DNA of 58,344 nucleotides, taken from positions 1 through 58,344 of the forward strand of contig CAZVRA010000004.1 in NCBI GenBank assembly GCA_964630055.1. The letters are read 5' to 3'. Within the stretch, counting starts at the first letter, position 1. Each line of letters starts with the position of its first letter. Positions 10,779 to 30,237 of this stretch are shown here, piece after piece. The translations under genes were made by a program, and so were the position numbers. The notes below the pieces were generated by a model. It was not told the DNA's origin and did not search any database. It saw only the letters and a program-made list of their open reading frames with translations. The stretch is from an uncultured Candidatus Saccharibacteria bacterium (lineage in GTDB: Bacteria; Patescibacteriota; Saccharimonadia; Saccharimonadales; CAZVRA01).

Positions 10779-10794
10779 CAGCAACCCAAAGGGT

Positions 10795-13527: not shown

Positions 13528-13585
13528 GATGTTGGTCGCAAGTGATGCTTAAAAATTTGTTGCGAAAGAAGAACGAAATTTGCGT

Positions 13586-13661
13586 GGCTCTTTAGCTCAG
13601 TTGGTAGAGCAGAGGCCTGAAGAGCCTTGTGTCCCCAGTTCGAGTCTGGGAGGAGCCACCA
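13586..13661 (+). tRNA. tRNA-Phe(GAA)
   Basis: ggctctt-ta-gctc-agttggta-gagc-a-gaggc-ctGAAga-gcctt-gtgtc-cccag-ttcgagt-ctggg-aggagcc-acca. 76 nt, canonical. Confidence 0.92.
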
Positions 13662-15330: not shown

Positions 15331-15455
15331 GACTCTTCCTCGCATATAAGTTCGATGAGCAGGTCGGCTATAACTTGCAAGCGTTGTTCGGGCGTTAAAG
15401 TGTAAGCTTCTGGGAGCCGTATTTCTTTATTAGTTGTACCCTTATTTCTAGCCAT
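15315..15455 (-). CDS. Small ORF (46 aa) overlapping the recombinase start; candidate directionality/accessory factor
   Basis: MARNKGTTNKEIRLPEAYTLTPEQRLQVIADLLIELICEEESCSQE. Its stop overlaps the recombinase ATG. Below the ORF-track cutoff and with no homology evidence. Confidence 0.3.
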   Translation of the reverse strand: MARNKGTTNKEIRLPEAYTLTPEQRLQVIADLLIELICEEESCSQE

Positions 15456-15647
15456 TTTTGCCCTCGATAGCTATGCTTTACATGAATAGTATAGCACCCA
15501 AATATGAATAGTTGCAATACCTTTTATGTATAAAATTGCACTTTTAAATCCCCACTAAGCATATAGCGCTTTCTTGATTGTACTACCTCTGTTCTCGCTT
15601 TACTTTTTCTTTCTCCTCTTTTATATATACATATAGGAGAAAAAACT

Positions 15648-16436
15648 ATGCGACGGACGGAGACAAAAACAAGATATACCATTAGTCGTTCACAAACTGC
15701 AATACTCCATGCCTTACTAAAATACCGCTTCCTAACAACTGACCTACTTGCAGACCTACTTAAGAAAGATCGCTCAACAATATACGAAAGATTAGCAGTA
15801 CTAGTAGATCAAGGATACATAGCACAGAAATATACCAGTACGTACCGCATAGACAGACGACCAGCTACCTACTATCTTGCACCGGCTGGAATACGGCACC
15901 TAAAGAAACAAGGCGTAGAACGCACTCAACTACACTACAAGAACAAAGACTTCACAGAAGCTCAAATAGATGAGTACTACCGTTATCCCAAGTTCAGTCG
16001 AGTAATTCACCGTAACTATCCTGAAACGTTCCGTACCTACACCAAGTACCAACTTGACCCCGAAAACTACCTCAACCCCATGCCCTGGCTGCTGTTCGTC
16101 CCAGACGACAAAGATGCCCCTGAACTCTTCATGGAATACATCTCAGCTGGTGAACAAAGCTGGATTATCCGTAAACGTATTAACCAACATATTGAGTATG
16201 CCGAGGAAGAGGCTGAATACCGCTACCCGTACTTATTACTGGTTGCGGGCAACGACAACACTGAAAAACGCATCGTGAAGATGTCGACTGACCTACTCTG
16301 GGACTCTGAGCTCTTTACCACCACCGAAGAACGGCTACTGAGTGACAACAAGAACATCTGGCTGCGCCCCATGGAAGTGGATTGGGATGAGGAGCTGATC
16401 TACCACGGGTTGCCGGTGGAGCTTGTTGAGGAGTAG
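15648..16436 (+). CDS. Winged-helix protein, replication-relaxation (Replic_Relax)-like
   Basis: 262 aa. N-terminal pattern ILHALLKYRFLTTDLLADLL...STIYERLAVLVDQGYI...YYLAPAGIRHL resembles plasmid replication-relaxation wHTH proteins. AGGAG RBS. Confidence 0.45.
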   Translation: MRRTETKTRYTISRSQTAILHALLKYRFLTTDLLADLLKKDRSTIYERLAVLVDQGYIAQKYTSTYRIDRRPATYYLAPAGIRHLKKQGVERTQLHYKNKDFTEAQIDEYYRYPKFSRVIHRNYPETFRTYTKYQLDPENYLNPMPWLLFVPDDKDAPELFMEYISAGEQSWIIRKRINQHIEYAEEEAEYRYPYLLLVAGNDNTEKRIVKMSTDLLWDSELFTTTEERLLSDNKNIWLRPMEVDWDEELIYHGLPVELVEE

Positions 16437-16470
16437 CTTTTCTCTCTAGAGGTACGGTATACTTGGGGCT

Positions 16471-16962
16471 ATGGATCTCTCGGGATTAATAAAGAAACTG
16501 GATTTCCAAGCTCAGGAAGAGCTTGAGTATGAAGATCTTCGAGCAAAGACACTCACGCGATCTGACGTGAAAGCGGACATGGAAGCCGTAAATTCTAGCC
16601 TAGAGATTATACGTAAAACTCGTGGTGGTTCGTGGCCATCTGAGCCCGTGACAGAAGAGTTTAACTTCCTCGATATGGCCTGGCATGAACGAGAGTTTCG
16701 AGACGGTGATTCATTCACATATGCAGTCTACGGTACCTCTGGCACATATATTGGTTGCTTCTACCTGTACCCTATGGGCTTGCGAACTCCACTAACAGAA
16801 GAGCTGTTGAGCTACGATGTTGATGCTAGCTGGTGGGTTACCACAGATGCATACAAGCAGGGTTACTATCAAAAACTGTACAAAGCTTTACAGCAATGGC
16901 TCAGTGAGCTTTCGCTCGAGAATGTTTATTATTCAAACAAGGAGATACCGAATGAAGATTAG
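16471..16962 (+). CDS. GNAT-family acetyltransferase-like protein
   Basis: 163 aa. Pattern WPSEP.T.E.N..DM.WHEREF.....FTYAV......YIGCFYLYP resembles a known GNAT (Acetyltransf_3-like) subfamily. Confidence 0.5.
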   Translation: MDLSGLIKKLDFQAQEELEYEDLRAKTLTRSDVKADMEAVNSSLEIIRKTRGGSWPSEPVTEEFNFLDMAWHEREFRDGDSFTYAVYGTSGTYIGCFYLYPMGLRTPLTEELLSYDVDASWWVTTDAYKQGYYQKLYKALQQWLSELSLENVYYSNKEIPNED

Positions 16963-17980
16963 TATAGAAGACTTAAGAAAAAAACTTGTTACTGCCGCAT
17001 CACAGGTAGTTTCGACAGAAGAAGCTGAATATTTCGCTGACGAGTCTATTGAAACGCATATTCGCAAGTCGCCGCGCTCCACTCCACTAAAGTCTGCAGT
17101 TGGTGACCTGAAGGCTAGTATTGAAAACAAAGACCATGCCATTACGTATAAGGTCGACCTACCATCGTACCTGTCTATAGACTTTCAGAGTCAAGGCCCA
17201 CTCGTATATATCAAAAGGATTCACGATGAGCTTGAAGAACGCTCCGCGAAGAATGGTATTGCTATGGGTTCGTTTGTTAACTCGCAGAGCATGCACACAC
17301 TTCATGCGTGGGTGCAGGGCCTTGCGAAACGTGGCCTTGTCGCGATTGCTGTATGCAATGGTGGCCCGAGCGCAGTCGTGCCGCATAACGGCACACGTGG
17401 CGTGTTTGGAACAAACCCTATGGCCTACGGCATTCCAGGAAAAGATGGAGAAATTCATTGTGTCGATATGGCAACCTCACAAATTCCATTCTTTGAGTTC
17501 ATGGATAGCCTGAAGAACGATACACCCTTGCAAGCAAACGCCGCAGTCGATCAAAATGGTGAGTTTACGACAGTAGCCAAAGAAGCAGTTGACCCTGATA
17601 GTGATCCGAAAGACCCGGTCAGTAACATAGTACCTATGGGCGGTAGTTACAAAGGATATTATCTTGTGTACTTGTTTGAACTGCTAACCAGTGGCTTAAT
17701 CGGTCAGCCCTCCAGCCCAGAAATGAGCGATAGCTTTGTTCCGGAAGAACATGGAGCAACTCTGATTGTATTCAACCCTAAAGCGATGGTCACAGCCGAT
17801 AATCTTGCAAAGTCTGTAAACTCACTCAACTCTACGCTGAAATCACAGAAGCCTAAGAAAGATACTGAAATACGGCTTCCTGGTGAAGAAAACAATAAAC
17901 GGTTTGCAGAAAATGTTCAAGAAATCGAACTTGACGATACTACTCTTGATACGCTCAACAAATTGCTGGACGAATCATGA
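16952..17980 (+). CDS. Ldh_2 family (malate/L-lactate/sulfolactate dehydrogenase type 2) oxidoreductase
   Basis: The ORF track starts at 16817, inside the upstream gene. Trimmed to ATG 16952, preceded by AAGGAG. Motif HNGTRGVFGTNPMAYGIP is typical of Ldh_2. Confidence 0.75.
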   Translation: MKISIEDLRKKLVTAASQVVSTEEAEYFADESIETHIRKSPRSTPLKSAVGDLKASIENKDHAITYKVDLPSYLSIDFQSQGPLVYIKRIHDELEERSAKNGIAMGSFVNSQSMHTLHAWVQGLAKRGLVAIAVCNGGPSAVVPHNGTRGVFGTNPMAYGIPGKDGEIHCVDMATSQIPFFEFMDSLKNDTPLQANAAVDQNGEFTTVAKEAVDPDSDPKDPVSNIVPMGGSYKGYYLVYLFELLTSGLIGQPSSPEMSDSFVPEEHGATLIVFNPKAMVTADNLAKSVNSLNSTLKSQKPKKDTEIRLPGEENNKRFAENVQEIELDDTTLDTLNKLLDES

Positions 17981-18858
17981 ATAAATCACCCTTGACTACT
18001 TCTGAGCTCAGTGAACTATTCCATCACTATTCACCCGACGATTTAGCTGCCAGTGAAAAGAATGGCGATGCCTTTGCCAACGATGCCTATAATCTGAAGA
18101 CTGCCGACGGTGCTGAATATGTCATGCGAATTCTAAAACTACAGATTCCTGAGACCGTAGAGCGTGAAGCGGAAATGCAGCATCAGCTCGCCGAAGCAGG
18201 TATTGGAACACCGCACTACCTTGCTTTCGAGAGCGGTAAGCACGTTGGCGAGCATGAGGGGCTTGCTTTTACGCTGAGCGAGCGTATTGCAGGTGAAGTT
18301 CCAAAAACTGCATCACTCGAACTAATTAGTAGCTTCGGTTCGACGTTGGCACAGTTTCATGATGTCCTAAAAGATACCGAGGTGCCCTTTAGCAAAATGC
18401 AGTGGTTCCAGCCCAAAAATGTTCATGAAGATCTTGAAAAGTATGACGGTGAATTAAAATCAGACACAACAAAGCTCATCACGGATGGTGAGAAACTATT
18501 TCAAACGGGTTTGCCACAAACACTGATTCATGGCGACTTGTGGCTTGGCAATGTGTTTGCTGACGGTGATAAAGTTACAGCTGTCTTTGACATGGAAACT
18601 GCCGAGCATAACTACCGTATTATAGACCTAGCCCGTACTTATCTTTCTATGCGCCTGGAAACCAAATACAGTAAAGACGAAATCATTGATAAGTTGTTTG
18701 TTGGCTACGATGCGGTCGCAAACGAGCTACTTACTCAAGAAGAAAAGGATAGTTTTGGTTTGGCGACCAGCTATACTGCTGGCGTTTGTGCGCTCTGGCA
18801 TGAGCTAAATGGCACAAGATATGCTGGTAATTACTTGAAATTTGGAGATGAGAAATAA
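17977..18858 (+). CDS. Aminoglycoside/choline-kinase-type phosphotransferase (APH family)
   Basis: 293 aa. Catalytic loop LIHGDLWLGNVF (HGDxxxxN) and metal-binding VFDMETA. Confidence 0.8.
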   Translation: MNKSPLTTSELSELFHHYSPDDLAASEKNGDAFANDAYNLKTADGAEYVMRILKLQIPETVEREAEMQHQLAEAGIGTPHYLAFESGKHVGEHEGLAFTLSERIAGEVPKTASLELISSFGSTLAQFHDVLKDTEVPFSKMQWFQPKNVHEDLEKYDGELKSDTTKLITDGEKLFQTGLPQTLIHGDLWLGNVFADGDKVTAVFDMETAEHNYRIIDLARTYLSMRLETKYSKDEIIDKLFVGYDAVANELLTQEEKDSFGLATSYTAGVCALWHELNGTRYAGNYLKFGDEK

Positions 18859-18860
18859 TC

Positions 18861-19520
18861 ATGAAACTATTGAACTATTCTTCCGCCGAGCTCACAGATA
18901 AGCTTAATACATATCTTGCCTCAGACCAGCGATATCAGGCCGTGTACAGCTATACGAAAAAACGTTTTGAGGCTGCAACCGAACTTGTAGCCCACAACTG
19001 GCCGCATTGCTACCGAGACACGCTAAACGCTATCGTAATCGGCGAAGCCGAAGGTGCGGACATGAGTATAGTTTTGCCAGCTATCACCATGCATGATATC
19101 GGATTTTTGTACGGTGCAAGCCCAGAGCAGCATGGTGCAGTTGGAGCAGATCGTGTCAAAGAATTCCTGAAAGAAGCAGGAGCTCATTATAGCGACGAGC
19201 AAATCGAAGCAATAGCAAATTGTATCCGAACTCACAAAGGCAGTATTCACGGTAAGCACCCCGAGGGACTGGAAGCAAAGGTCGTTACTGACGCTGATTT
19301 GCTAGAAAAGTTTGGTTTATTTGGCGTCTATCAAACAGTGCGCACCTACGCCGAGTTTAACTGGTCAATTGATAAAGCCATCGAGCGTGGCGATCGGATC
19401 CTCACGGTCGAGCTAGAAACTGAAACCGGGGAAAAATTGGCTGAGCCAGGCAGACAATTTGTCGCTGATTTCTACAGTCAATTAAAGATAGCAAATGAGC
19501 CGTACGAGGAAGGGCGATGA
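18861..19520 (+). CDS. HD-domain phosphohydrolase
   Basis: 219 aa. H...HD pattern (HNWPHCYRD...AITMHDIGF) and a downstream D (VVTDADLLEKFG). Confidence 0.7.
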   Translation: MKLLNYSSAELTDKLNTYLASDQRYQAVYSYTKKRFEAATELVAHNWPHCYRDTLNAIVIGEAEGADMSIVLPAITMHDIGFLYGASPEQHGAVGADRVKEFLKEAGAHYSDEQIEAIANCIRTHKGSIHGKHPEGLEAKVVTDADLLEKFGLFGVYQTVRTYAEFNWSIDKAIERGDRILTVELETETGEKLAEPGRQFVADFYSQLKIANEPYEEGR

Positions 19521-20182
19521 AATTAGTCCTCGCCTCCCAAGGCTTCACCACGCCTGAGATTGCCCAAGCAACCGCAGATCTCGTCGGTAAACCTCTCACC
19601 AAGCTCAACGTAGCTGTCATTAACGAAGCGTATGTAGCTATTGCTCCTGGCAGAGATGAAAGCTGGCTGATTAACGAGTTATCTCTTTTGAAACAGTATG
19701 TTAAGAGCGTGTTTTTTGTTAATCTTCGAGCCTACGAACTTCCTGAGGTTAAAGATCGTCTGAGCACAGCAGATATTATATACATCGTTGGCGGTGCGCA
19801 GTTAGTATTACCCAGATTATTCAGGCAAACTGGCCTTGACAAACTCCTCACTGAATATGCACAGGACAAAGTTATTCTTGGTACCTCTGCTGGTGCTAAT
19901 GTGCTCGGCAGTCACATACCAAGCGCAGCGTATTGGGAAGATCAGTATGGAGACGCCGCTACTTACTTAGCCGAACCATCTCTCGGCTTAGTTGATTTCA
20001 ATATCTTGCCTCATTACGGCAGAGAAGATCACCCACATCGAACCGATGCAATCTTAACGCCCCTGCTCAAAGATAATCCATTCCCATTGTTTGGCGTGGC
20101 TGACACACAAGCTGTTATATATAACAACGGTGCAATAACGTTTGTGGGTGGAGAACCGGTAAAGTTTGGAGAAGAAAAGTAG
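19517..20182 (+). CDS. Peptidase S51 (dipeptidase E-like)
   Basis: 221 aa. IIYIVGGAQ...LGTSAGANVLG nucleophile-elbow region and a downstream His (LPHY). Confidence 0.75.
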   Translation: MKLVLASQGFTTPEIAQATADLVGKPLTKLNVAVINEAYVAIAPGRDESWLINELSLLKQYVKSVFFVNLRAYELPEVKDRLSTADIIYIVGGAQLVLPRLFRQTGLDKLLTEYAQDKVILGTSAGANVLGSHIPSAAYWEDQYGDAATYLAEPSLGLVDFNILPHYGREDHPHRTDAILTPLLKDNPFPLFGVADTQAVIYNNGAITFVGGEPVKFGEEK

Positions 20183-20183
20183 T

Positions 20184-20516
20184 ATGCAGTTTGTCATCAT
20201 TGGCCTAGACGGAACAGACAAGGACGCGCCTACTCGTAGACAGCTGGTTCGCCAAGACCACATCAAGATGGGCGACAAGTTATTGGCGTCAGGCAATTTG
20301 TGGTACGGCGCAGCTTTGCTCCATGACAACGGATCTATGAAGGGTTCAATGTATGTCGTGAACTTTGAGTCAGAAGAGAAGCTCCAAGAGTACCTAAAGA
20401 AAGAGCCGTACATTGTTGGCGACGTATGGCTTGACGTTACGATTCATAAGTCTAATACCCGTGATCCATGGCAGTTCAATAGAGATGAATCTTGGTTTAA
20501 GGAGAGCACAAAATGA
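20184..20516 (+). CDS. YciI-like protein
   Basis: MQFVIIGLDG...RQDHIKMGDKLLASGNLWYGAALL...GSMYVVNFESEEKLQEYLKKEPY fits the YciI ferredoxin-like family. ATG 20184 was chosen because it sits just past the upstream stop. Confidence 0.6.
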   Translation: MQFVIIGLDGTDKDAPTRRQLVRQDHIKMGDKLLASGNLWYGAALLHDNGSMKGSMYVVNFESEEKLQEYLKKEPYIVGDVWLDVTIHKSNTRDPWQFNRDESWFKESTK

Positions 20517-20977
20517 ACCTAGACATTGAACAATCAATCCGAGAACATATAGGCAAAACTGTACACATGTCACTTGGTACGGCCACTCTAGATAGTAAGC
20601 CCTGGGCCTGTGAAGTGCATTTTGCCTATGACAGTAAGCTTAGTCTATACTTTGTATCTAAACTTACTACAAGACACTGCAAGGAAATTGCTGCTAATCC
20701 AAATATTGCAGGCAATATCGTTAAGCAGCACTCTTTGGAAGAATCACCGCATGGTGTGTACTTTGAGGGTACGGCTAAAGTTATAGAACCGAGCGATGAG
20801 CAACTTGAGCTATATTGCTCTCGCTTAAGTCGCAACAAAGAAGAATTGGTCGAACAACTTACTGAAGCAGATGGCCGTCGTATGTACAAAATCAGTGTTA
20901 GTAACTGGGCTATCTTTGGCAAATTTGGGTTTGAGGCCAACCAAAAACACGAGTTAGCATGGAGTAACAATGATTAA
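20513..20977 (+). CDS. Pyridoxamine 5'-phosphate oxidase-like FMN-binding split-barrel protein
   Basis: 154 aa. Pattern TVHMSLGTATLDSKPWACEVHFAYD...LYFVS......H...I..NP.IAG.I, as in general-stress-26/PNPOx-like proteins. Confidence 0.55.
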   Translation: MNLDIEQSIREHIGKTVHMSLGTATLDSKPWACEVHFAYDSKLSLYFVSKLTTRHCKEIAANPNIAGNIVKQHSLEESPHGVYFEGTAKVIEPSDEQLELYCSRLSRNKEELVEQLTEADGRRMYKISVSNWAIFGKFGFEANQKHELAWSNND

Positions 20978-21338
20978 GGGCTTTTTGCATACCGCTTTTG
21001 AAGTTGATGATATCGAAAGTGCGATTACCTTTTATGGCAACCTCGGCTTCAAAGTTACTAAACAGTTTGATAAACCCGAGCCAGAAGCCAAAGCAGCTCA
21101 TATTGTAAACGACAACGGAGATACATTTGAGCTTTGGCAGTTTACCGATAAAGCTCACCCGCAAGTTGAGTTTATCCGTCGTCATGTTGCCTTTGAATCA
21201 GATAGTCTTGAGGAAGATATTAAGAGGCTGACCGAACAAGGTTGTGAATTGGTTATCCCAATTACCAAAGGTGTAACTCTAACTTATGCTTTTGTCCGAG
21301 ATCCCAGCGGTAATTATATAGAGATAGGACAGCGATGA
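20970..21338 (+). CDS. VOC/glyoxalase-bleomycin-resistance family protein
   Basis: 122 aa. MIKGFLHTAFEVDDIESAITFYGNLGF... and C-terminal HVAFESD...AFVRDPSGNYIEI. Confidence 0.75.
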   Translation: MIKGFLHTAFEVDDIESAITFYGNLGFKVTKQFDKPEPEAKAAHIVNDNGDTFELWQFTDKAHPQVEFIRRHVAFESDSLEEDIKRLTEQGCELVIPITKGVTLTYAFVRDPSGNYIEIGQR

Positions 21339-21880
21339 AACTCTATCGCTTTAGCCCTATCTCTGACAAAGAGCAGCTTCTTGAAGCGATACAATATACG
21401 CACCTTGCCTGCAATAAGTTGTGTAAGCAATCATTTGGTAAGTATCTACCGAATGCAGGCAACGTAGGTATTTTTTGCCACTACGATATGGAGTATCGAA
21501 AGCTTATTGAGATTAGGAACAGAATTGTTAAGCCATCTGACGACCCCAGCCAGAAATACTTTGAGTTACTCGAACCGATCATTATCTCTGCCCAAGGTGA
21601 CGTGCCTAAAACAACCTACACGCATTTATATATTCGCAAACCCGACATTTACCGTGCACAAGTTGGTGATATAGATTTTTACCTCGAAGAATCTGAATAT
21701 GATGAATTGAAGAGATCTCTCGTCAATGACAAACAAATAGCTGGCGCACGAATATTCCCTCGAAACGACCTCGATATGATCGAACTCTACAATCCTGATA
21801 TTGATGCACTTGGCTATGTCAGTACTAGTGTCATGAGCCAAAAGGTACATATCAAACTATCTGAGGAAACGAACTTATGA
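21335..21880 (+). CDS. Hypothetical protein
   Basis: 181-aa ORF, translationally coupled (4-nt overlaps) on both sides. No motif recognised. Confidence 0.5.
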   Translation: MKLYRFSPISDKEQLLEAIQYTHLACNKLCKQSFGKYLPNAGNVGIFCHYDMEYRKLIEIRNRIVKPSDDPSQKYFELLEPIIISAQGDVPKTTYTHLYIRKPDIYRAQVGDIDFYLEESEYDELKRSLVNDKQIAGARIFPRNDLDMIELYNPDIDALGYVSTSVMSQKVHIKLSEETNL

Positions 21881-22320
21881 ACAACAAAGGTAAAAAAATA
21901 CTTGAACAAATCAGATATGCCACCATCTCATCAGTTGGTTCGGATGGTCAGCCCTGGGCTGCACCAGTGTGGTATATATTTAATGAAGATACTATTTACT
22001 GGTGGTCACCCGTAGAGTCGCAGCACTCAAAGAATATTAGTGTAAACCCGAATGTATATATAACAATCTTTGATTCAACAGTACCTGAGGGTGATGGACT
22101 GGGGCTATATCTGAAGGCAGAAGCACAACAGGTCAGCGATAACGAACTGGAAACCGTTATAACTCTATACAATGCGTCTACTAAGATATTCAAGCTTGAT
22201 CAGAAAAACTGTAGTGGTAACGCGCCAACAAGATTGTACAAAGCAACGATTACGAAACGCTGGGTTAACGACGGCGTTGAGCGTCATGGTTTTTACACTG
22301 ATCAAAGGGTAAGCCTATGA
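21877..22320 (+). CDS. Pyridoxamine 5'-phosphate oxidase family protein
   Basis: 147 aa. YATISSVGSDGQPWAAPVWYIF......IYWWS....HS.NI..NP.VYITIF is typical of the PNPOx split barrel. Confidence 0.65.
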   Translation: MNNKGKKILEQIRYATISSVGSDGQPWAAPVWYIFNEDTIYWWSPVESQHSKNISVNPNVYITIFDSTVPEGDGLGLYLKAEAQQVSDNELETVITLYNASTKIFKLDQKNCSGNAPTRLYKATITKRWVNDGVERHGFYTDQRVSL

Positions 22321-23051
22321 AAGTGTCTGTACTCCAATGGAACATCTGGTATCTCGAAGACACCAGGAAAGTTACCGAGTTTCTCAAGCAAAACAAAGCT
22401 GACATCATCTGCCTACAAGAGCTAACGATTGGTTTTGATCAGCAAAACAATATTCACACACCCGAATATATTGCCAAAGAGCTGGGTTATCACGTTTATT
22501 ACCAAGACATAACCTTTGACGGTAAAACACTGAAGCTTGCCAACGCAATCTTCAGTAAGTATGAGTTATATGATGTTAGAACGGTCTGGATTAATACTGA
22601 AGGCGGCTCTGGGCACTACGATGACGAAAATCGAGCCTATGTCGAAGCCACAGTTACCATTGATGGCAAGAACCTAACCGTTGGCACCGTGCATATGTCG
22701 TATACTCACGCTTTTGAACCATCTGAGCGGAAACTACAAGAAACTGATGCGCTGGTTGAGGCGATCAAGAGCAACAAGAAGAACTTTGTCTTAGCGGGTG
22801 ACTTTAATGCGCAACCAGATTCTGAGGTCGTTAAGCGAATTGAAAAGCATGTTAAAAACCTCGGCCCGGGCTATGACGAGAAAACCTGGACGACCAAGCC
22901 GTTTTCGTACAATGGGTTCGAAGCAACCGAGCTAGATTACCGCGTGGATTATGTTTTTGGTTCGCAAGACATTCAAGCTGAGTCAGCAAAAGTCCTCAGT
23001 ACTGATATTTCGGATCATCTGCCGATTTGGATGGAGCTTAACTTAAGGTAG
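22317..23051 (+). CDS. Endonuclease/exonuclease/phosphatase (EEP) family protein
   Basis: 244 aa. VLQWNIW, ADIICLQE, GDFNAQPDS, SDHLPIW motifs. Confidence 0.8.
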   Translation: MKVSVLQWNIWYLEDTRKVTEFLKQNKADIICLQELTIGFDQQNNIHTPEYIAKELGYHVYYQDITFDGKTLKLANAIFSKYELYDVRTVWINTEGGSGHYDDENRAYVEATVTIDGKNLTVGTVHMSYTHAFEPSERKLQETDALVEAIKSNKKNFVLAGDFNAQPDSEVVKRIEKHVKNLGPGYDEKTWTTKPFSYNGFEATELDYRVDYVFGSQDIQAESAKVLSTDISDHLPIWMELNLR

Positions 23052-23055
23052 GTCT

Positions 23056-23394
23056 ATGAATATTATTCTTATTATTATCGGTAGTCAGCTACTATTCACC
23101 ATCGGTGATTTACTGGCGCGGCATAACTTGCAAGCCCAGGGCTTCAAATTCACTACCTTCATTGCCTGGTGGTTCTTGGTCTACGTGGTGCTGCGAAGTG
23201 CTGCAACACTGGGACAGCTGTTTGTTTTTACTAACATGGAGGTCGGTAAGACTATGGCGCTATTTGGGGCATCAAGCTTAGTCCTCGTGAACGTGCTCGG
23301 ATTCCTTATTTTGGGTGAAAAACTTTCACTCCCAATATACTTCGGTATAATGTTAGCTGTAGGAGCAATCTTAATTGTAGGGTTCAGTAAATAA
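23056..23394 (+). CDS. Small 4-TM DMT/SMR-like membrane transporter subunit
   Basis: 112 aa with four predicted helices. The size and topology match EamA-half/SMR-like proteins. Confidence 0.5.
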   Translation: MNIILIIIGSQLLFTIGDLLARHNLQAQGFKFTTFIAWWFLVYVVLRSAATLGQLFVFTNMEVGKTMALFGASSLVLVNVLGFLILGEKLSLPIYFGIMLAVGAILIVGFSK

Positions 23395-23900
23395 TGAAAA
23401 CCGTTCACGACAGCGCCACCCCCACTCCTGGCCAGCAGGTTATCACAGCCTGTGCATTCATTCATCAGGAATTCGATGGCGTACAGAAACTCTTTATGGC
23501 CAAGCGTGCCGACACCAAGAAATTCTTGCCCGGCATATACGAGATCCCCGGCGGGCATATCGACTTTGGCGAAAACATCGAAGATGGTCTGGTTCGCGAG
23601 ATTCAAGAGGAGTTCAGCGTAGCAGTACGCCTAGGCGACCCATTTGCAGTTTTTACCTACCTGAATGAAGTTAAGGGCTCCCACTCTATTGAGGTGATTT
23701 ACTTCGCACAACTAGCTGACCCGAGCGTGAACATACAACCGAACCCCGAAGACCATAGTACTTGCGGCTGGTTTACCGAGGTGGAATTACCACAAACCTT
23801 TGTGAGCGAAAAAGATACAGAGGATGATGAGGTTAAAGCCTTGTATCGAGGGTTTGCGTTGCTCAAGGGTGAAAAGCTTGATTTTAGCAATAGAGCCTAG
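23394..23900 (+). CDS. NUDIX hydrolase
   Basis: 168 aa. Nudix box GGHIDFGENIEDGLVREIQEEFSV (GX5EX7REUXEEXGU). Confidence 0.85.
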   Translation: MKTVHDSATPTPGQQVITACAFIHQEFDGVQKLFMAKRADTKKFLPGIYEIPGGHIDFGENIEDGLVREIQEEFSVAVRLGDPFAVFTYLNEVKGSHSIEVIYFAQLADPSVNIQPNPEDHSTCGWFTEVELPQTFVSEKDTEDDEVKALYRGFALLKGEKLDFSNRA

Positions 23901-23942
23901 GCGTTAGGGCTTGAATAGCCGACAAGTATAGCGTTATTGAGG

Positions 23943-24542
23943 CTATTTTGCTGCTAGTGCAACTGACTTTTTGCCAAGTATTGACGCAACCCAAGACACT
24001 TTCTCTGGGCTTACTGGATCAGGTATTAGCACCTCTGGCATCTTGTAAAACGGAGGATAGGCATTGCCAGATGACCTATCTAGCAAAACACCATCTGACT
24101 GGTTATATAGTTTTCGATAATCACTGAGTGTAATTGCACTCTCCCAGTATCGCTCAACAGCTCTCTCGGGAATGCCGTTACGATGTGAATAACGAAGCCC
24201 TAAAGCCACATCTTTGAGCCTTTCTGCATCCAGTACCATAGCCGTATCGGGGTCAACCTCTACAGACAACGTGATGAGTTGGTCTAGCTCTTTTCCTCTC
24301 AGGGATCCTCTATGAAGCCTTTCTAGCGACGGGTGGGCATAGATTCCATCTGTTCTGGATATACCACGGGTAACTAGTTCTTTGGGTCTAAATTCATCGA
24401 CAACTTCGTCAACATAACCACGCATGGTCTCAAGCTCTCCCATACCTGATACCAAGCCATGTGCTTCAATGGAACTTAGGTGTGCTAAATCAGTGATGTG
24501 GTATACGGTATCTATGTTTGATGTATTTATTTTATCGGACAT
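23943..24542 (-). CDS. Hypothetical protein; candidate ADP-ribosyltransferase fold (Tpt1/Arr/DarT-like YHxT...GL motif)
   Basis: 199 aa. VYHITDLAHLSSIEAHGLVSG, then GIYAHPSLE, LITLSVEV and PEVLIPDP. The order and spacing recall the NAD-binding lobe of H-Y-[ED] ARTs. Assignment by eye only. Confidence 0.35.
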   Translation of the reverse strand: MSDKINTSNIDTVYHITDLAHLSSIEAHGLVSGMGELETMRGYVDEVVDEFRPKELVTRGISRTDGIYAHPSLERLHRGSLRGKELDQLITLSVEVDPDTAMVLDAERLKDVALGLRYSHRNGIPERAVERYWESAITLSDYRKLYNQSDGVLLDRSSGNAYPPFYKMPEVLIPDPVSPEKVSWVASILGKKSVALAAK

Positions 24543-24575
24543 TTACATACATATTAGCATAATGAGTTTGATTCA

Positions 24576-25454
24576 TTAAATTTCTGAAATCTTGAATTGT
24601 TCTGCTTTAGCAATGCCAGACGCTAATACCTCTTCGATTTCACTCTCCGTAAGACCAAGCTTTGCTCCTGATTCGTGGATCCATTCACGATATTTTTTAC
24701 TGCCAACTGTATCTCTATCGACTTCTACATTAATAGCTCCGCGATACAGGCCGGTAAAACTATCAATCTCCGCGGTAATTCTATCTTGCTCGGCTCGATC
24801 AAGTTGGAGTGCACCTTGAGCTATACGCTGCAGGCTTTCTCTCAGTGGAGCACCTCCAAGCAAGAATGCCGTAATATGATCATCGCCAATATCGTGATCA
24901 AAGTAATCGTATGATACTGGGTACTTGCCCTCAGCAATTGCGGCTAAGTATTCTGGTGAACGAATGTCTTTTTCGTCAAAGAAGACAACTTCAATTCCAT
25001 GCTCGGCGGCAGCTTTACGGAACGTTTCTGGCGTCGGAATACCAGATATGTATGAACCAGACTCGTCACTTGCAAATTCGTAACCAAGGGACTGCAACAA
25101 ACCTTGGCTTTCGTTGCCAGCCAGCAGCGTCCAGCCTGCTGAATCGTCATCAAAGGTTGGTGTAAAACATTCACTGTCAACCACCAAACCTTTCGGCCCC
25201 GAGCGCATAATGATCGAGCGAGCAGGTACATATGGTTCTACTTGGTCGTCTCCGGCAAAATATATTGTATAGGCTCCGGGCTCGAGCTTATCGAGGTCTT
25301 TGGGGTTAAGAGGATTGGTTGTAGCATCAGTGGTATCTGCCGTAAATGGCTCGACACCATCTGGTAGGTCAGTAAGAAAGTGTTGGTCGCCAATTATTAA
25401 TGGTCGCCTATCTAGGGATGTATCTCCTTCTGGTGTTAAATTTTCTACTGGCAC
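24576..25454 (-). CDS. Hypothetical acidic protein
   Basis: 292-aa ORF lying between the NTase gene (15-nt gap) and the ART-like gene (33-nt gap). No family recognised. Confidence 0.55.
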   Translation of the reverse strand: MPVENLTPEGDTSLDRRPLIIGDQHFLTDLPDGVEPFTADTTDATTNPLNPKDLDKLEPGAYTIYFAGDDQVEPYVPARSIIMRSGPKGLVVDSECFTPTFDDDSAGWTLLAGNESQGLLQSLGYEFASDESGSYISGIPTPETFRKAAAEHGIEVVFFDEKDIRSPEYLAAIAEGKYPVSYDYFDHDIGDDHITAFLLGGAPLRESLQRIAQGALQLDRAEQDRITAEIDSFTGLYRGAINVEVDRDTVGSKKYREWIHESGAKLGLTESEIEEVLASGIAKAEQFKISEI

Positions 25455-25469
25455 AATGTTTCCTCTTTT

Positions 25470-26255
25470 TTATTTTTCATCACCTACTAGCCCTAACCGC
25501 TCGATTACTTTTTGTTTATCAAACACGTCAACGTCTATGCCAATGTCTCCCCAAATGCTTCGCGCAACTTCTTCGCCACCAACGTATTTGAAAACTTTCC
25601 GAATATTCTTTTCATACCGCTCATCTTCAACTCCTGGAAGCTTTTTAATGAGCAGGTCAATTTCTTCTTTAGGCGGAGGAGTATAGCCGTTATGCACAAA
25701 TCTTATGACTGAGAACAGATTTGCAGCCTGGTGTCGATAGCCAGTAGGGTTTAGTACCAGTTTCTTATCTTGGATTGCTTCAAGTGCGCCTGGTAGAGAA
25801 ATCAGCTTCTCCTGCCATTGTTCGGAGAAAATATCTCTTAGTGAGATTGCATTGCCGTTAACGGTTAACCCTACATGCTGTTTTAGGTTGTTAGCGACTG
25901 AGGTGTTATCTACTAAGTGGATATCAAATACCAGATTGTTCTTAAAGTCTTCAGGGTCTTGATTGCCGACAAACGATTTAATCATGACTTTTTGTGTAGG
26001 TCGCTGAATACGCCCCTCGTAAAAGCCGAGTTGACTTAAATACGCGAGGTACTTATCACTTCCTTTGACTACAATCTGATCGTAATCTCGTTGTTCTAAG
26101 TCATCCCCACCATGAAAGAATCTTTGGATTGCATTACGTACAGTACCGGCGACTAAATACACCTCTATGCCGTCAGGGAGGTTTTTAACCAGGTTCTTGA
26201 AAACTTCACGCCCACGATTGTCTTTAAAATCCATGGGGAGTAAGGTGTTTTTCAT
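25470..26255 (-). CDS. Minimal nucleotidyltransferase of the CCA-adding/poly(A) polymerase (PolyA_pol head) type
   Basis: 261 aa. VAGTVRNAI...RDYDQIV resembles GGxVRD...DxD, and TVNGNAISL resembles the TiNAla motif. Much shorter than canonical CCA enzymes. Confidence 0.55.
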   Translation of the reverse strand: MKNTLLPMDFKDNRGREVFKNLVKNLPDGIEVYLVAGTVRNAIQRFFHGGDDLEQRDYDQIVVKGSDKYLAYLSQLGFYEGRIQRPTQKVMIKSFVGNQDPEDFKNNLVFDIHLVDNTSVANNLKQHVGLTVNGNAISLRDIFSEQWQEKLISLPGALEAIQDKKLVLNPTGYRHQAANLFSVIRFVHNGYTPPPKEEIDLLIKKLPGVEDERYEKNIRKVFKYVGGEEVARSIWGDIGIDVDVFDKQKVIERLGLVGDEK

Positions 26256-26390
26256 AAAATTAGTATATCAAAAAAAGAAAGGCTTCTGTTCTCTCGCAAG
26301 TAGCATGGACACAAACCTCTCTTAATCTCATCATCTGGGTAACGATGCAAGCTACAGTAGTGGCTGGTATTCTTATCTATCGATAAGGGG

Positions 26391-26396
26391 TATACT
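26391..26396 (+). promoter_or_regulatory. -10 box TATACT 8 nt upstream of ATG 26405 (leaderless-type start) in the divergent control region
   Basis: ggggTATACTggtagtcaATG. No Shine-Dalgarno sequence. Confidence 0.35.
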
Positions 26397-26404
26397 GGTA
26401 GTCA

Positions 26405-28222
26405 ATGGAAGAAAGTATCGACACTCTGCAGCCGAATCCTACGAGTCTGCATGATATTCCTGAACTAAAAGAAATCCACGTTCGAGAGGGTGTGACATTG
26501 CGCCCACTAGAGGTAGAAGATGCAACCCGCATGCTGGAAATCTTAGACACCGATCCATCCATACGTGATAGGGTATCAGTTGCTTCAAGAATGCATTCGC
26601 CGGAGAGTGTTGCAGAACAAGTAGAAACGTATCAAAACGATGCGCACACCATTCGTTACGCCCTGCTCGAGGGTGATCGACCTGTTGGTCTTGTATCGTT
26701 CTGGCGGGATATCGATAATCCGTTCAACGCCCCTGATAATCCGAACGACTATGGTTTTGGTTATTTCCTTGATCCAAATGAACGAGGCAAGGGTCTTGTT
26801 CCTGATGCCGTGCAGCAAGTCATGAATACCGCTCAAGATGTCTTACACGTAGAAAACTTCATAGCCTATTGTGAAGATAATAACCCAGAAAGTATTACAG
26901 CTCTAACCAAACTTGGCTTTGAGTCCACCGATCTAACCTATGAGGAACAGAATAACGGCTGGGTTGAACGCAAATACGTAAAGAGTACTCAGCCGAACGA
27001 GCCGCTATCAGTTATTGAACTGCCGTCTGAGGATGAAGTCACGAGTCGACAGCAAGCCCTACCGCAAGTGGATCATTACGAGGTGCGGCATGGCTCTGGC
27101 TTTAGAGAGGCGCGTTTTGAAGCGATCAAGAGACTTGAGCGCATAAATAAACAGGATTACTCAGTCGAAGAGCTCCAAGAACTTGAGGCACAAGCCCATG
27201 ATTATACGCCAACTATAGGCATAGAAATCGAGATTTACGACAAGGCCTTGCTGAGTGAGGCAGAGCGAACACTAAGCCCAGACGAACAGGCAGACGTTAT
27301 TGCTAAGCGAAAACGAACCTTAGGCAGGATCGAGCGCACCGGCATACCTAGGGATGATAGCGACCCTGGCTGGTGGGAATTTGCACTGCAGCCTACACGT
27401 ACCCCAGAGTTGTTGACAGCTGAAGTACAGGCACTCGAAGACGCTGATGTACTGCATGGCGGCGAACGATACTATCCCTTACACGTAACGCTTGGCGGTA
27501 TAACTAGCGAGAAGCAAAGCGCTTTATCCGAAGTTATGGAGCATGACTTACAAGGTGAGCAGGTTTTTGTACTTGTCCACGCTCTTGAGGCATCTGGCAT
27601 TGCAACAACTCCAAAGCGGCTCATGATGCCCGCAACATCATCAGTAAAAGGTGACTATTGGACAAGTGGAAACGCCGGTATCATCGAGAGAGAACCCGAG
27701 CAGATGAGGGGGGTTAACTTTACAAACGGAGTGGAAATACGATCATTTTGTTTTAGTACGGTTGAAGAACTAGGAACAATCATGCAATCCACACAGGCAC
27801 TTGGAGCAGCCTTAAGCGCATACCAGGACTTATCGCGATTGACTGAACATAAAAGCGCTATGCCGCTAAGCCATAAAACTATAGAAACAAGGCCTGCCCC
27901 GCGTATTAGAAGCGGCGCTGACCTAGAAGACGTTATACGGTTAAGTGCTGTTTGGTCAGATTTTAGCCACAAGGTACACGAGCTATTTGGTGAAGCTGGT
28001 TTAGTTGATCCAAGCACCGTTTGGCACGAGCCACGTTCAAAGGGGTTGTTGCGTAGTGCGTCAACGGGAGATTACGGTGCAATGGCAAACTTCATGAAAA
28101 AAGCAACGAAGCCAGGCAGCCCAGAACATGCCGTGCAGCAGCAACTCGTACGGCTGATTGAATCTGCGGCTACAGCGGTGAATAATATAACGCGCCAAGA
28201 GTCGACAGCTCCGAAGGTTTAA
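26405..28222 (+). CDS. Fusion protein: N-terminal RimJ/RimL-type GNAT acetyltransferase + C-terminal glutamine-synthetase-like carboxylate-amine ligase (amidoligase) candidate
   Basis: 605 aa. GNAT region is LRPLEVEDATRM...GFGYFLDPNERGKGL. The C-terminal part has motifs in the order TIGIEIEIY, WWEFALQPTRTPE, YPLHVTLGG, GVEIRSF, as in GCS2/amidoligase/PafA-type ligases. Confidence 0.5.
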   Translation: MEESIDTLQPNPTSLHDIPELKEIHVREGVTLRPLEVEDATRMLEILDTDPSIRDRVSVASRMHSPESVAEQVETYQNDAHTIRYALLEGDRPVGLVSFWRDIDNPFNAPDNPNDYGFGYFLDPNERGKGLVPDAVQQVMNTAQDVLHVENFIAYCEDNNPESITALTKLGFESTDLTYEEQNNGWVERKYVKSTQPNEPLSVIELPSEDEVTSRQQALPQVDHYEVRHGSGFREARFEAIKRLERINKQDYSVEELQELEAQAHDYTPTIGIEIEIYDKALLSEAERTLSPDEQADVIAKRKRTLGRIERTGIPRDDSDPGWWEFALQPTRTPELLTAEVQALEDADVLHGGERYYPLHVTLGGITSEKQSALSEVMEHDLQGEQVFVLVHALEASGIATTPKRLMMPATSSVKGDYWTSGNAGIIEREPEQMRGVNFTNGVEIRSFCFSTVEELGTIMQSTQALGAALSAYQDLSRLTEHKSAMPLSHKTIETRPAPRIRSGADLEDVIRLSAVWSDFSHKVHELFGEAGLVDPSTVWHEPRSKGLLRSASTGDYGAMANFMKKATKPGSPEHAVQQQLVRLIESAATAVNNITRQESTAPKV

Positions 28223-28225
28223 AGC

Positions 28226-28783
28226 ATGAAAATCTACGTCATTCGTCACGGTCAAACAAAACTAAACGTTGAACATATCATCAACGGTAATATAGATGAC
28301 GAGCTAACTCCCAAGGGTATAAAACAAGCAGCACTAGCTGCTACCACACTGCCGGATTCTATAAAACGTATGTACGTCTCTTCCCTCTGGCGTGCCAAGC
28401 AAACCGCTGACATATTAAATGCTGGCCGAGAGCTGCCCATTACCTATAGTGATGATCTGCGTGAGGTAAACTTCGGCGATCTGAATGGTAAGCCCTTTCT
28501 CGAAGAATACCAAGCACGACACATGGCGCTTAATTACGACTGGCGACCTTCTGGCGAGAACTTTACAGACGTCAAAACTAGAGTCCTACGGGCGCTACAA
28601 AAGATCAAAGAGGAGAACAATGACGGTGAAGCACTAATTGTTGGGCATGGTGGTACTATCCGAACACTGTACTATTTAGAGAATGGTCAGCCGATGGGCA
28701 CGATTGAGAATGCGTCACTCTTCACTTTTGACCTAGATAAAATCCTTGAACAACGTCTTACTCCTGAGAGTGCTGTAGAATAG
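28226..28783 (+). CDS. Histidine phosphatase (phosphoglycerate mutase superfamily)
   Basis: 185 aa. KIYVIRHGQT (RHG) and VGHGGTIR motifs. Confidence 0.85.
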   Translation: MKIYVIRHGQTKLNVEHIINGNIDDELTPKGIKQAALAATTLPDSIKRMYVSSLWRAKQTADILNAGRELPITYSDDLREVNFGDLNGKPFLEEYQARHMALNYDWRPSGENFTDVKTRVLRALQKIKEENNDGEALIVGHGGTIRTLYYLENGQPMGTIENASLFTFDLDKILEQRLTPESAVE

Positions 28784-28790
28784 AGTAGAT

Positions 28791-29003
28791 ATGCCAGATA
28801 AAACACCCCTACATATTGGCCACAAACTCCAGGCAGCTCGCCAGAATAAAGGCTTCACGCAAGCCGAAGTTGCTAAGCGTGCTGGTACAACTGTCAATCA
28901 CTACGCAAAGATTGAGCGCAGTGAAGTAGTTCCATCGCTCAAAACGCTTGAAAAGATCATCAAAGCGCTCGAGATCAAGTCCGCGGACGTCCTGCCCTTT
29001 TAG
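28791..29003 (+). CDS. XRE-family helix-turn-helix transcriptional regulator
   Basis: 70 aa. LQAARQNKGFTQAEVAKRAGTTVNHYAKIERSEVVPSLKTLEKI is a classic HTH_3 pattern. Confidence 0.85.
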   Translation: MPDKTPLHIGHKLQAARQNKGFTQAEVAKRAGTTVNHYAKIERSEVVPSLKTLEKIIKALEIKSADVLPF

Positions 29004-29218
29004 TTACCAAGAGATTTTTCGTACTCGTCGACAAGCGCTTCAAACTTGTCTGGGTCATCAAATGCGATACTGCGTACATTCTCGTTGATCCGTGATTTGA
29101 GATGGTCTAGAAACGCCAGACAGTAGGCAGGCTCAGCTTTTTCGGGGCTGTCAGGATAGAAGGCCTTCATGTAGCGCCCTACTGCTGCAATATCTTCATC
29201 GGTAAATTGATCACTCAT
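29000..29218 (-). CDS. Small acidic hypothetical protein downstream of and overlapping the PLD nuclease gene
   Basis: 72-aa ORF. Its start overlaps the PLD stop by 8 nt. Rich in Asp/Glu. Confidence 0.5.
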   Translation of the reverse strand: MSDQFTDEDIAAVGRYMKAFYPDSPEKAEPAYCLAFLDHLKSRINENVRSIAFDDPDKFEALVDEYEKSLGN

Positions 29219-29717
29219 GATTCACCTTATTATACCACCTTGCAAGCTTGGTGAAGCGTATCATCTGCTGAACTAATTCTGATGACTTAGTGCGTCGCAT
29301 TACTTCGCAGCTATCTGTTTGCGACAAAATGTTCAAGCTACCTTCGTAAAGCGTACGGTGGTCTATGATGGCCAGCTTACGATGCAGGTTGCTCGTGTAG
29401 ATGACCGTAATGCCCAGGCTTTGCAGCCAAGCAACTCCCCCTTGAGCCTGCACGCGCATTACGTCGCTATGCGTATCGGGATTGCGCGTATTTATAACGA
29501 TGCTCACACCACGACTGCGGGCTTCTCTCAGCCCGTCACAGAGCCATTCCAGGCGTTTAGTAGTAATGAACGGACTCTCGATGATAATACTCTGTCGGGC
29601 TCGCTGGATATCGCGTGCGAAGACATCATAGAATGCCTGTTCGTCCAATAGTTGCGACCGAAGTAAAGATGAGGTATCATACATCTGTTGACTCAGCGGG
29701 AATAGGAATCTACGCAT
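29211..29717 (-). CDS. Single-HKD phospholipase D-family (Nuc-like) nuclease
   Basis: HKD motif NLHRKLAIIDHRTLYEGSLN. N-terminal FYDVFARDIQRARQSIIIESPF. ATG 29717 is preferred (GGAG 7 nt upstream). The ORF track starts at GTG 29765, and ATG 29684 is also possible. Confidence 0.75.
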   Translation of the reverse strand: MRRFLFPLSQQMYDTSSLLRSQLLDEQAFYDVFARDIQRARQSIIIESPFITTKRLEWLCDGLREARSRGVSIVINTRNPDTHSDVMRVQAQGGVAWLQSLGITVIYTSNLHRKLAIIDHRTLYEGSLNILSQTDSCEVMRRTKSSELVQQMIRFTKLARWYNKVNHE

Positions 29718-29820
29718 CGCTAGACTCCATGATTGTATCGATGTCGAGCTTCTCAAGTTTGTCACTTAGTTTTGCAAGCTCAGAGAGTATGTCGTTCCAG
29801 TTTTCCCTGGTAGAGTCCAC
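29710..29820 (-). CDS. Possible small acidic ORF (about 36 aa, GTG/TTG start) whose stop overlaps the PLD start
   Basis: VDSTRENWNDILSELAKLSDKLEKLDIDTIMESSDA*. The stop TAG lies inside ATGCGTAG of the PLD start. No ATG and no clear RBS, so the call is weak. Confidence 0.2.
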   Translation of the reverse strand: MDSTRENWNDILSELAKLSDKLEKLDIDTIMESSDA

Positions 29821-29858
29821 CAAAACGACATTTAAATACGATACTGCTTAGATATAAT

Positions 29859-30110
29859 CTATCGTAGTTCTTGCATCCGACGTTCATTTTCGTCTAAATC
29901 ACGACCGAGCTGATCTAAAAACTGTACATGCTGATCTAGCTCGGATACCTCACGTTCCCATTCAGCTATAGTGCTTTGTAATTGCTCTATGTCACGCTTC
30001 ATACGCTCCAGAGTATCGCGAAAATTTTGAGATTGCCTGCGTCTTTCGTCGGCTAGTCTTTTTGCATTACTAGCACTAGAACGCACATTATCACCTGCAG
30101 CCACTGGCAA
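29859..30110 (-). CDS. Small coiled-coil hypothetical protein
   Basis: 83-aa ORF from TTG. GTG 30104 lies 6 nt after AGGAG and is more likely. Charged heptad-like sequence (ERMKRDIEQLQSTIAEWEREVSELD). Confidence 0.45.
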   Translation of the reverse strand: MPVAAGDNVRSSASNAKRLADERRRQSQNFRDTLERMKRDIEQLQSTIAEWEREVSELDQHVQFLDQLGRDLDENERRMQELR

Positions 30111-30160
30111 CTCCTGACTTATTTTATGGTTATTATATAAGATATTTTAGTCGAATTTTG

Positions 30161-30237
30161 TGGTGGAGCCACGGGGATTCAAACCCCGGACCTCAGCGCT
30201 GCCAGCGCTGCGCTCTAATCAGCTGAGCTATGGCCCC
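30161..30237 (-). tRNA. tRNA-Ala(GGC) with an atypical D-loop/T-loop
   Basis: Reverse complement ggggcca-ta-gctc-agctgatta-gagc-g-cagcg-ctGGCag-cgctg-aggtc-cgggg-tttgaat-ccccg-tggctcc-acca. G3:U70 Ala identity pair is present. The D-loop lacks GG and the T-loop has U at position 56. Confidence 0.9.

Follow-up and report, generated by a model that had tools for sequence, protein, structure and literature searches.

Nucleic-acid ADP-ribosylation, exemplified by DarT, Tpt1, CmdT and RhsP2, is a fast-growing field, and to our knowledge every known DarT comes with a reversing macrodomain or NADAR partner. DarT (PF14487) is a single-domain ADP-ribosyltransferase (ART) of ∼200 aa, whose essential residues are R52, D54, M71, N104 and E152 in DarT1 and R51, Y71, H119 and E160 in DarT2 (PMC11543638). 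In these two enzymes, the catalytic Glu (E152 and E160, respectively) and the Arg of the NAD loop (R52 and R51) are the residues needed for base ADP-ribosylation. BC2332 of Bacillus cereus (PDB 2AUA), an uncharacterised orphan of ∼210 aa, has an ART fold resembling that of diphtheria toxin (PMC3024214). In the CCA-adding enzymes and poly(A) polymerases, which are class-II nucleotidyltransferases (NTases), the EDxxR motif serves as the amino-acid template selecting CTP/ATP (PMC2532741). Proteins resembling these two groups of enzymes are encoded side by side in a 58,344-nt contig of an uncultured Candidatus Saccharibacteria bacterium (CAZVRA010000004.1, assembly GCA_964630055.1; hereafter, the window), where three genes follow one another on the minus strand: NT261 (25470-26255), AC292 (24576-25454) and ART199 (23943-24542). 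A first-pass annotation of the sequence had placed the three open reading frames (ORFs) correctly and had read them as a three-gene operon, in which an NTase acting on RNA 3′ ends and an ART, next to an acidic protein, formed a pairing of the kind known from toxin-antitoxin, anti-phage or RNA-repair systems. The present analysis suggests, from sequence profiles and a structural model, that ART199 belongs to a DarT-like ART family of candidate phyla radiation (CPR) and DPANN lineages that is new to the family libraries Pfam, NCBIfam and PADLOC. The three genes together are not a conserved system but a local juxtaposition of two independent units in a variable cargo region. Neither the ART fold nor the scaffold of class-II NTases is in itself a new kind.

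The 199-aa product of ART199, read from an ATG start, had no match in Pfam, NCBIfam or PHROGs, and PADLOC returned only a weak partial match to DarT (E = 0.04, residues 11-33). Searches of PDB sequences and searches with narrow family profiles gave noise only for all three proteins of the locus. Tertiary structure prediction with AlphaFold2 on an alignment of nine ART199 sequences reached a pLDDT of 56.8, at which the fold search was meaningless; that alignment was replaced by one of 61 sequences built from an exhaustive profile search, and the resulting model had a pLDDT of 90.7, a pTM of 0.86 and six core strands. The top match of this model in the PDB, as found with Foldseek, was E. coli DarT1 (8baq, E = 5.5e-4, probability 0.99), and DarT was the best structural match overall (also 7omu and 7omv). 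The second-best was BC2332 (2aua, probability 0.92), which belongs to another phylum and has no detectable sequence relationship to ART199. Further matches included Thermosipho DarTG, Thermus DarT, pertussis toxin S1, Tpt1/KptA (probability up to 0.97, 8tg4), cholera toxin and PARP1/2. Among the 50 PDB matches listed, every characterised protein was an ART, and the one uncharacterised protein, BC2332, is ART-like. The named matches in BFVD were phage proteins annotated as RNA 2′-phosphotransferase (Tpt1-like), DarT or PARP catalytic domain. A split β-sheet ART fold for ART199 is thus supported by the model, which agrees with the ART-like character proposed for the protein at first pass, as does a conserved H…Y…E series.

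The conserved residues of the family were located on the model. The motifs V13-Y14-H15-I16-T17, G66-Y68-A69-H70-P71 and P169-E170 are invariant, and the sequence motifs quoted for ART199 and NT261 in the first-pass annotation exist and are family invariants. Across the 61 aligned sequences, H15 in strand 1 is conserved in 57, G29 in 60, D49 in 53 and P53 in 57; R63, in the loop before strand 2, is conserved in 60 and Y/F68, in strand 2, in all 61; Y132 is found in 58, W133 in 61 and E170, in the PEVLIP strand, in 60. E95 of LITLSVEV was rejected as the catalytic Glu, as it is present in 11 of the 61 sequences compared with 60 of 61 for E170. H15, R63, Y68 and E170 are hence the candidate catalytic or NAD+-binding residues, the triad positions being assigned by conservation and secondary structure. 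D49-x-x-R52 of ART199 stands at the spacing of DarT1 R52/D54 from the strand-1 His, so that both R52 and R63 are candidate equivalents of the DarT Arg. A helical insertion of ∼40 residues (106-145) lies between strands 4 and 5, which is the place of the substrate-binding ADP-ribosylating turn-turn (ARTT) loop of DarT (PMC11543638).

Sequence comparison pointed in the same direction. Among PDB sequences, the ART199 family profile matched DarT1 (E = 0.009) and, with E ∼ 0.01, several chains of Tpt1; the matched region is the NAD+ motif of strand 1 and helix 1, which reads [FY]H.T...L.SI...GL in both the ART199 family and DarT1. A near-invariant Glu around residue 150-170 and a near-invariant loop Arg ahead of strand 2 may be further features in common with DarT (PMC11543638), and H15, R63 (or D49-R52), Y68 and E170 would be positionally comparable to the DarT essential residues. 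A fusion relative (P0170) was matched by the Pfam DarT model over residues 7-170 (164 residues; E = 4.8e-4), and the PADLOC DarT model matched one ART199 relative with E = 0.0015. The family differs from DarT in remaining below the Pfam threshold (20.3 bits for this best relative against a gathering score of 22.5), and no Pfam family was matched by the 61 aligned members at E ≤ 0.01. It further differs in being acidic and no obvious DNA binder, in having no DarG macrodomain or NADAR partner in Pfam scans of the AC292 family and of the neighbours, its distant relatives being solo, and in its restriction to CPR/DPANN lineages, where it also occurs as a domain of giant proteins. With Tpt1/KptA, ART199 shares the NAD+-lobe motif YH.T..L.SIL.eGL.p, matched by the family profile with E = 0.01; the match covers only Tpt1 residues ∼88-123, and the N-terminal RNA-binding lobe is absent, so ART199 cannot have the full Tpt1 architecture. 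Unlike in Tpt1, a Glu of the catalytic type is conserved (E170), as is characteristic of transferase ARTs. Of the three comparisons made at first pass, those with DarT and Tpt1 were borne out by both profile and Foldseek; Arr, an enzyme of ∼140 aa that has an H-Y-D motif and acts on rifamycins, was absent among the 50 PDB matches listed, and ART199 differs from it in its length of 199 aa and in having Glu rather than Asp.

When 1.84 billion representatives (50% clustering) were searched exhaustively with an HMMER profile, 128 proteins of the ART199 family were retrieved at E ≤ 1e-3, compared with nine close relatives in a word-indexed search; a locus search with the narrow alignment yielded one GTDB species representative. 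The named sources are Saccharibacteria, Parcubacteria, one unclassified bacterium and DPANN archaea (Altiarchaeota and Woesearchaeota). In the DPANN archaea the domain is part of large fusions, namely, a 7011-aa protein of Altiarchaeota and 1754-1779-aa proteins of Woesearchaeota; overall, the ART199-like domain is C-terminal or internal in proteins of 1302-7011 aa, and it is C-terminal in proteins of 278-1497 aa, where it follows a short NP(L)F linker motif. Such a C-terminal fusion layout would be typical of effector or toxin modules. The linker N-P-L-F was observed ∼25 residues before the VYH strand in P0164 (residues ∼1300-1330), P0129, P0123 and P0144, and may be a pre-toxin or processing motif. 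No relatives of ART199, AC292 or NT261 were found in phage records or on IMG/VR contigs, and a tblastn search of a plasmid collection, made with a 47-aa DarT1 fragment only, gave no match. A literature search for ARTs of Saccharibacteria/Patescibacteria, or for short CCA-type NTases, retrieved no earlier description.

ART199 moved alone, and recently, between diverged genomes. Sliding-window identity and nucleotide alignment with the homologous loci L010/L011 delimited a recombination tract (23932-24562) that spans exactly the ART199 ORF, from ∼20 nt upstream of the ATG to ∼10 nt past the stop codon. The ORF itself is 97.5% identical in nucleotides (15 mismatches in 600 nt); the flanks are ∼70% identical, with 60-84% on the AC292 side and 58-78% on the side of the NUDIX gene. 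No repeats flanking the tract were found. A tract of gene size and such identity indicates that ART199 is an independently selected unit, and its lone exchange counts against a tightly co-evolving toxin-antitoxin interface. The L010 and L011 contigs, which come from two independent samples, both end ∼250 nt downstream of their ART199 homolog (∼7800), which points to a break of the assembly in a repeated or hypervariable stretch immediately behind the gene. The NUDIX hydrolase gene (23394-23900, plus strand; weakly Nudt16-like, E = 0.027) is convergent with ART199 at a distance of 42 nt. L005 has this arrangement as well, and in L023 the ART199 relative is likewise accompanied by a nearby NUDIX gene; NUDIX genes occur as well in islands that have no ART199 (L007, L016). 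A functional tie of this hydrolase to ADP-ribose metabolism is possible but unsupported.

The gene upstream of ART199 encodes AC292, a 292-aa protein with a GTG start. Its acidity, remarked on at first pass, was confirmed (pI 4.30, net charge −31), and the pI is 4.2-4.6 throughout the family. An invariant motif, H187-D188-x-x-D191-D192-H193, and a P-T-P-x-T motif were recognized. No relative of AC292 was found in Pfam, NCBIfam, PHROG or the PDB, Pfam and PADLOC being negative across all 14 family members; the AC292 profile matched nothing in the ART199 family or in 17 E. coli proteins, and no internal repeat was found. A short stretch of AC292 (residues 142-166; 24957-25031) aligned with NT261 (residues 228-252; 25500-25574) in hhalign (P = 0.002, 25 columns), with the common pattern G-I-[ED]-V-x-x-F-D-x-K; this likeness is probably due to chance.

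The arrangement of the three genes in the window is compact. The intergenic gaps measure 15 nt between NT261 and AC292 and 33 nt between AC292 and ART199, and a strong Shine-Dalgarno sequence for AC292, AGAGGA (25461-25466, minus strand), is separated from its GTG by 6 nt and immediately follows the stop codon of NT261. No terminator-like sites were seen on the minus strand between the three genes; given this and the position of the Shine-Dalgarno sequence, co-transcription of NT261, AC292 and ART199 in this genome is plausible. Homologs clustered at 90% identity numbered 9 for ART199, 39 for NT261 and 14 for AC292; as each of these families has conserved columns, all three ORFs are real genes. 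The homologs with a named source belong to Candidatus Saccharimonadales or Saccharibacteria.

Comparison of the window with 11 other distinct genomic contexts, however, did not bear out the trio as one system. The three genes stand together in this window only. Absence of linkage in other genomes had been named at first pass as grounds for dismissing the trio, which by that standard is refuted. NT261 relatives were located in three different neighbourhoods (L014/15, L016 and L017/18), none with AC292 or ART199, and NT261 was found at no other ART199 or AC292 locus. The DNA homology of the window with L005/L010 ends at the AC292 N-terminus (∼25,400-25,440), and this break between NT261 and AC292 indicates that NT261 arrived by a separate rearrangement. 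AC292 and ART199 form an intact pair in the window, L005 and L010/11, with a serine recombinase adjoining in the latter two. In one further case, L001-4/L021 (L001-4 comprising 14 contigs), ART199 is intact and AC292 is shortened to 132 aa, its tail being frameshifted. ART199 relatives are solo in four contexts (L006, L023, L024 and one JGI contig), and AC292 is solo in two, L007-9, which hold its most abundant variant, and L012/13. The genes upstream of the ART199 relatives in L006 and L023 are unrelated to AC292, and the relative in L024 (28% identical) is located among genes for phosphoribosyl pyrophosphate (PRPP) synthetase, dihydroorotate dehydrogenase (DHODH) and a glycosyltransferase. 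The AC292-ART199 pair is an optional association among orthologous loci.

NT261 (261 aa, ATG start) had been described as a CCA/poly(A)-type NTase, and this description holds as a class-II similarity with an invariant DxD. The protein had no match in Pfam, NCBIfam, PADLOC or PHROGs, and only 1 of 30 relatives matched PF01743 (E = 0.055), so that no Pfam match above threshold was obtained for either Cca/PcnB family (PF01743, PF12627). The family was aligned by hhalign with E. coli Cca and PcnB taken from NC_000913.3. The alignments were collinear with Cca over 161 columns (Cca 2-178; P = 2e-4 to 6e-4) and with PcnB over 207 columns (PcnB 45-268; P = 2e-3 to 4e-3); the best value for 15 unrelated E. 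coli control proteins, a set that includes GlnE, a Pol-β NTase of another family, was P = 0.027. In these alignments, EVYLVAGTVRNAI of the NT261 family was paired with KIYLVGGAVRDAL, QRDYDQ with VKDRDW, HVGLTVNGNA with RRDLTINALA and, in the neck, IRF with ARF; NT261 is hence collinear with motif A (GGxVRD…DxD), motif C (RRDFTINA, comparable to GLTVNGNA) and the neck helix (RF). G37, D57, D59, D111 and R185-F186 are invariant in 30 sequences, further invariants being R40/N41/A42 (AGTVRNAI), R56-D57-Y58-D59-Q60 (RDYDQ) and N133/A136 (TVNGNAIS), and G37, D57 and D59 align to GG and D21xD23 of E. coli Cca. In contrast to Cca and PcnB, the GG of NT261 is often AG, the D of VRD is N, and 7 aa are inserted between the G motif and DxD. 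The position of EDxxR reads [HY]-Q176-A-A-N179, its Q and N being conserved to 90% or more, and the protein stops after the neck, so that it consists of a head and a neck and lacks the body and tail domains. NT261 is accordingly best described as a divergent class-II Pol-β NTase and, owing to the replacement of EDxxR by [HY]QAAN, is predicted not to be a canonical CCA-adding enzyme or poly(A) polymerase. As this template motif is missing, the action on RNA 3′ ends assumed at first pass is not supported (PMC2532741). A housekeeping CCA-adding role was also considered and rejected on account of the absence of EDxxR and of the body and tail, the varying contexts and the tRNA genes of the window. 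All eight of the latter (141-217, 5067-5154, 5277-5350, 6177-6253, 9271-9358, 13441-13527, 13586-13661 and 30161-30237) encode their own 3′-terminal CCA, so that there is no need here for CCA to be added de novo.

The interpretation that we favour, with modest confidence, is that ART199 is an active DarT/Tpt1-like ART on a macromolecule, with AC292 as an optional modulator or neutraliser and NT261 independent of both. ART199 would bind NAD+ via H15 of strand 1, Y68 of strand 2 and the invariant R63, and E170 of the PEVLIP strand would transfer ADP-ribose to a macromolecular target. Nucleic acid is the best guess for this target because the nearest structures are those of DarT1/DarT2 and Tpt1. 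AC292, translated just upstream, would be the likeliest protein to modulate or neutralise ART199 wherever they are paired, although dispensable across the family, and NT261 would be a stand-alone unit, probably unrelated in function to the other two, though probably co-transcribed with them here. Several observations weigh against this interpretation. The Foldseek TM-scores are low (0.3-0.4), for which reason the likeness of the ART199 model to DarT is one of superfamily or clade and not orthology, and ART199 itself has no Pfam DarT match. Most members of the ART199 family are acidic (median pI 5.5), which is unusual for a DNA/RNA-binding enzyme; together with the lack of a DarG/NADAR-type partner, this counts against a nucleic-acid target, and no Macro or NADAR domain was found in AC292, its 13 relatives or the window neighbours. 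As regards AC292 as a required neutraliser, intact ART199 stands beside the decayed AC292 of L001-4, and solo ART199 relatives (L006, L023, L024) and solo AC292 (L007-9) exist. Near-identical ART199 alleles adjoin AC292 alleles that are 71% identical in protein. The loci of the three intact pairs are orthologous and their genomes related, so that these pairs do not count as independent associations. The profile P-values that place NT261 among the class-II enzymes are modest.

The same evidence was weighed with respect to other explanations. AC292 and ART199 may form a type II-like toxin-antitoxin or anti-phage abortive-infection pair like DarTG, with NT261 as a bystander, in which ART199 would modify DNA/RNA and arrest growth and AC292 would neutralise it by binding, in the manner of a nucleic-acid mimic, or would reverse its effect enzymatically through HDxxDDH. 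The order of the genes (antitoxin first, 33-nt gap), the recurrence of the pair in three genomes next to a serine recombinase, the closest structure being DarT, the pI of 4.2-4.6 in the AC292 family, the location on a mobile element and the recent single-gene spread of ART199 are all consistent with such a pair. It is nevertheless regarded as doubtful, since ART199 is intact beside a decayed AC292 in the 14 contigs of L001-4 and solo ART199 relatives stand among housekeeping genes; in addition, the most abundant AC292 variant is solo, and an ART199 97.5% identical to that of the window is paired with a 71%-identical AC292. The toxin-antitoxin or defence linkage proposed at first pass was not substantiated either, as NT261 and AC292 had no match in PADLOC and ART199 only the marginal partial one to DarT, PHROGs was negative for all three proteins, and no relatives were present in phage records or on IMG/VR viral contigs. 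A related but broader view, which we rate as unlikely, is that ART199 represents a new ADP-ribosylating effector class of ultra-small episymbionts (CPR/DPANN), deployed as a free 200-aa protein or as a giant-protein module that hits macromolecules of hosts or competitors, with AC292 as a new acidic fold that neutralises or reverses it.

That ART199 might instead be an Arr-like resistance ART acting on a small molecule, with AC292 and NT261 as unrelated neighbours and NT261 possibly an antibiotic nucleotidyltransferase, appears improbable. Saccharibacteria live on antibiotic-producing Actinobacteria, the island cargo consists mostly of small-molecule modifiers (APH, GNATs, glyoxalase/bleomycin-resistance, NUDIX, PNPOx, HAD, EamA), and the single-gene spread at 97.5% nucleotide identity resembles the dissemination of a resistance gene; the acidity of the family and the occurrence of solo, apparently non-toxic relatives would fit as well. 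However, the list of 50 Foldseek PDB matches from which Arr is absent is headed by DarT and Tpt1, the helical insertion of ART199 (106-145) lies where DarT has its ARTT loop (PMC11543638), and a domain found at the C-termini of 400-1500-aa proteins and inside giant proteins fits effectors better. Least probable is a three-gene pathway of RNA repair or modification, with NT261 acting on RNA 3′ ends, ART199 as a Tpt1/KptA-like enzyme on RNA phosphate ends and AC292 as an adaptor. The tight spacing with the Shine-Dalgarno sequence directly after the NT261 stop, the presence of Tpt1 among the sequence and structure matches of ART199 and the relation of NT261 to class-II tRNA NTases speak for it. 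Against it, none of the other contexts compared has the trio or shows NT261 beside AC292 or ART199, the synteny break falls exactly between NT261 and AC292, the ART fold of ART199 starts at residue 11 with no Tpt1-type N-terminal RNA lobe before it, and NT261 has neither EDxxR nor the tRNA-binding body and tail domains.

All three genes are carried by an integrative element of ∼17 kb (13441-30237), delimited by tRNA calls, Pfam scans and synteny, so that the mobile island suspected at first pass was recovered as a tRNA-flanked element with a serine recombinase and a Replic_Relax protein. Its left boundary is formed by tRNA-Leu/Phe genes (13441-13661) and its right boundary by a tRNA-Ala gene (30161-30237). 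At the left end are located a large serine recombinase (13597-15345, minus strand), the ORF of which overlaps the 3′ part of tRNA-Phe (13586-13661), and the Replic_Relax protein (15648-16436). According to Pfam, the cargo consists almost entirely of small enzymes, i.e., Ldh_2, APH, HD, peptidase S51, YCII, two PNPOx, glyoxalase/bleomycin-resistance-like, Exo_endo_phos, NUDIX, a GNAT fusion, His_Phos, HTH and PLD proteins, and this gene set is reshuffled in other Saccharimonadales loci (L001, L005, L007 and L016) in a mosaic synteny. The GNAT fusion, a 605-aa protein encoded divergently from NT261 (26405-28222, plus strand), has an N-terminal GNAT part (26405-26983) similar to stand-alone 196-aa GNATs in L001 and L007, and a C-terminal part (27173-28206) similar to a stand-alone 418-aa protein in L016 (4164-5420). 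Before the tRNA-Ala gene at the right end are a PLD-like (Nuc-type) protein (29211-29765, minus strand) and a helix-turn-helix (HTH) regulator of the XRE family (28791-29003, plus strand). In L005, where the pair is 82% identical, the island runs on into genes for a weak Terminase_6C-like protein and a ParB-N6/N4 methyltransferase (9482-12563); these genes offer hints that part of the element may be phage-like or plasmid-like in origin.

The negative result on the trio is useful in itself, as NT261-AC292-ART199 should not be catalogued as a system. NT261 is of some interest as a naturally minimal class-II enzyme in which the template EDxxR is replaced by QAAN, in a window where the tRNA genes all encode CCA. 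The ART199 family is DarT-like, has been missed by Pfam, NCBIfam and PADLOC, and is found in episymbiotic CPR/DPANN organisms with reduced genomes, where it occurs solo, with an unrelated acidic partner or inside giant proteins, with no canonical reversal partner; one of its alleles has recently moved singly between genomes that are otherwise ∼25% diverged. If ART199 is active, the DarT clade would be extended to symbiont-host conflict, and a new target or neutralising mechanism could emerge. Should ART199 represent a new class of effectors of these episymbionts, it would form part of a DarTG-like conflict system in which the second component is wholly different and the target chemistry may be new.

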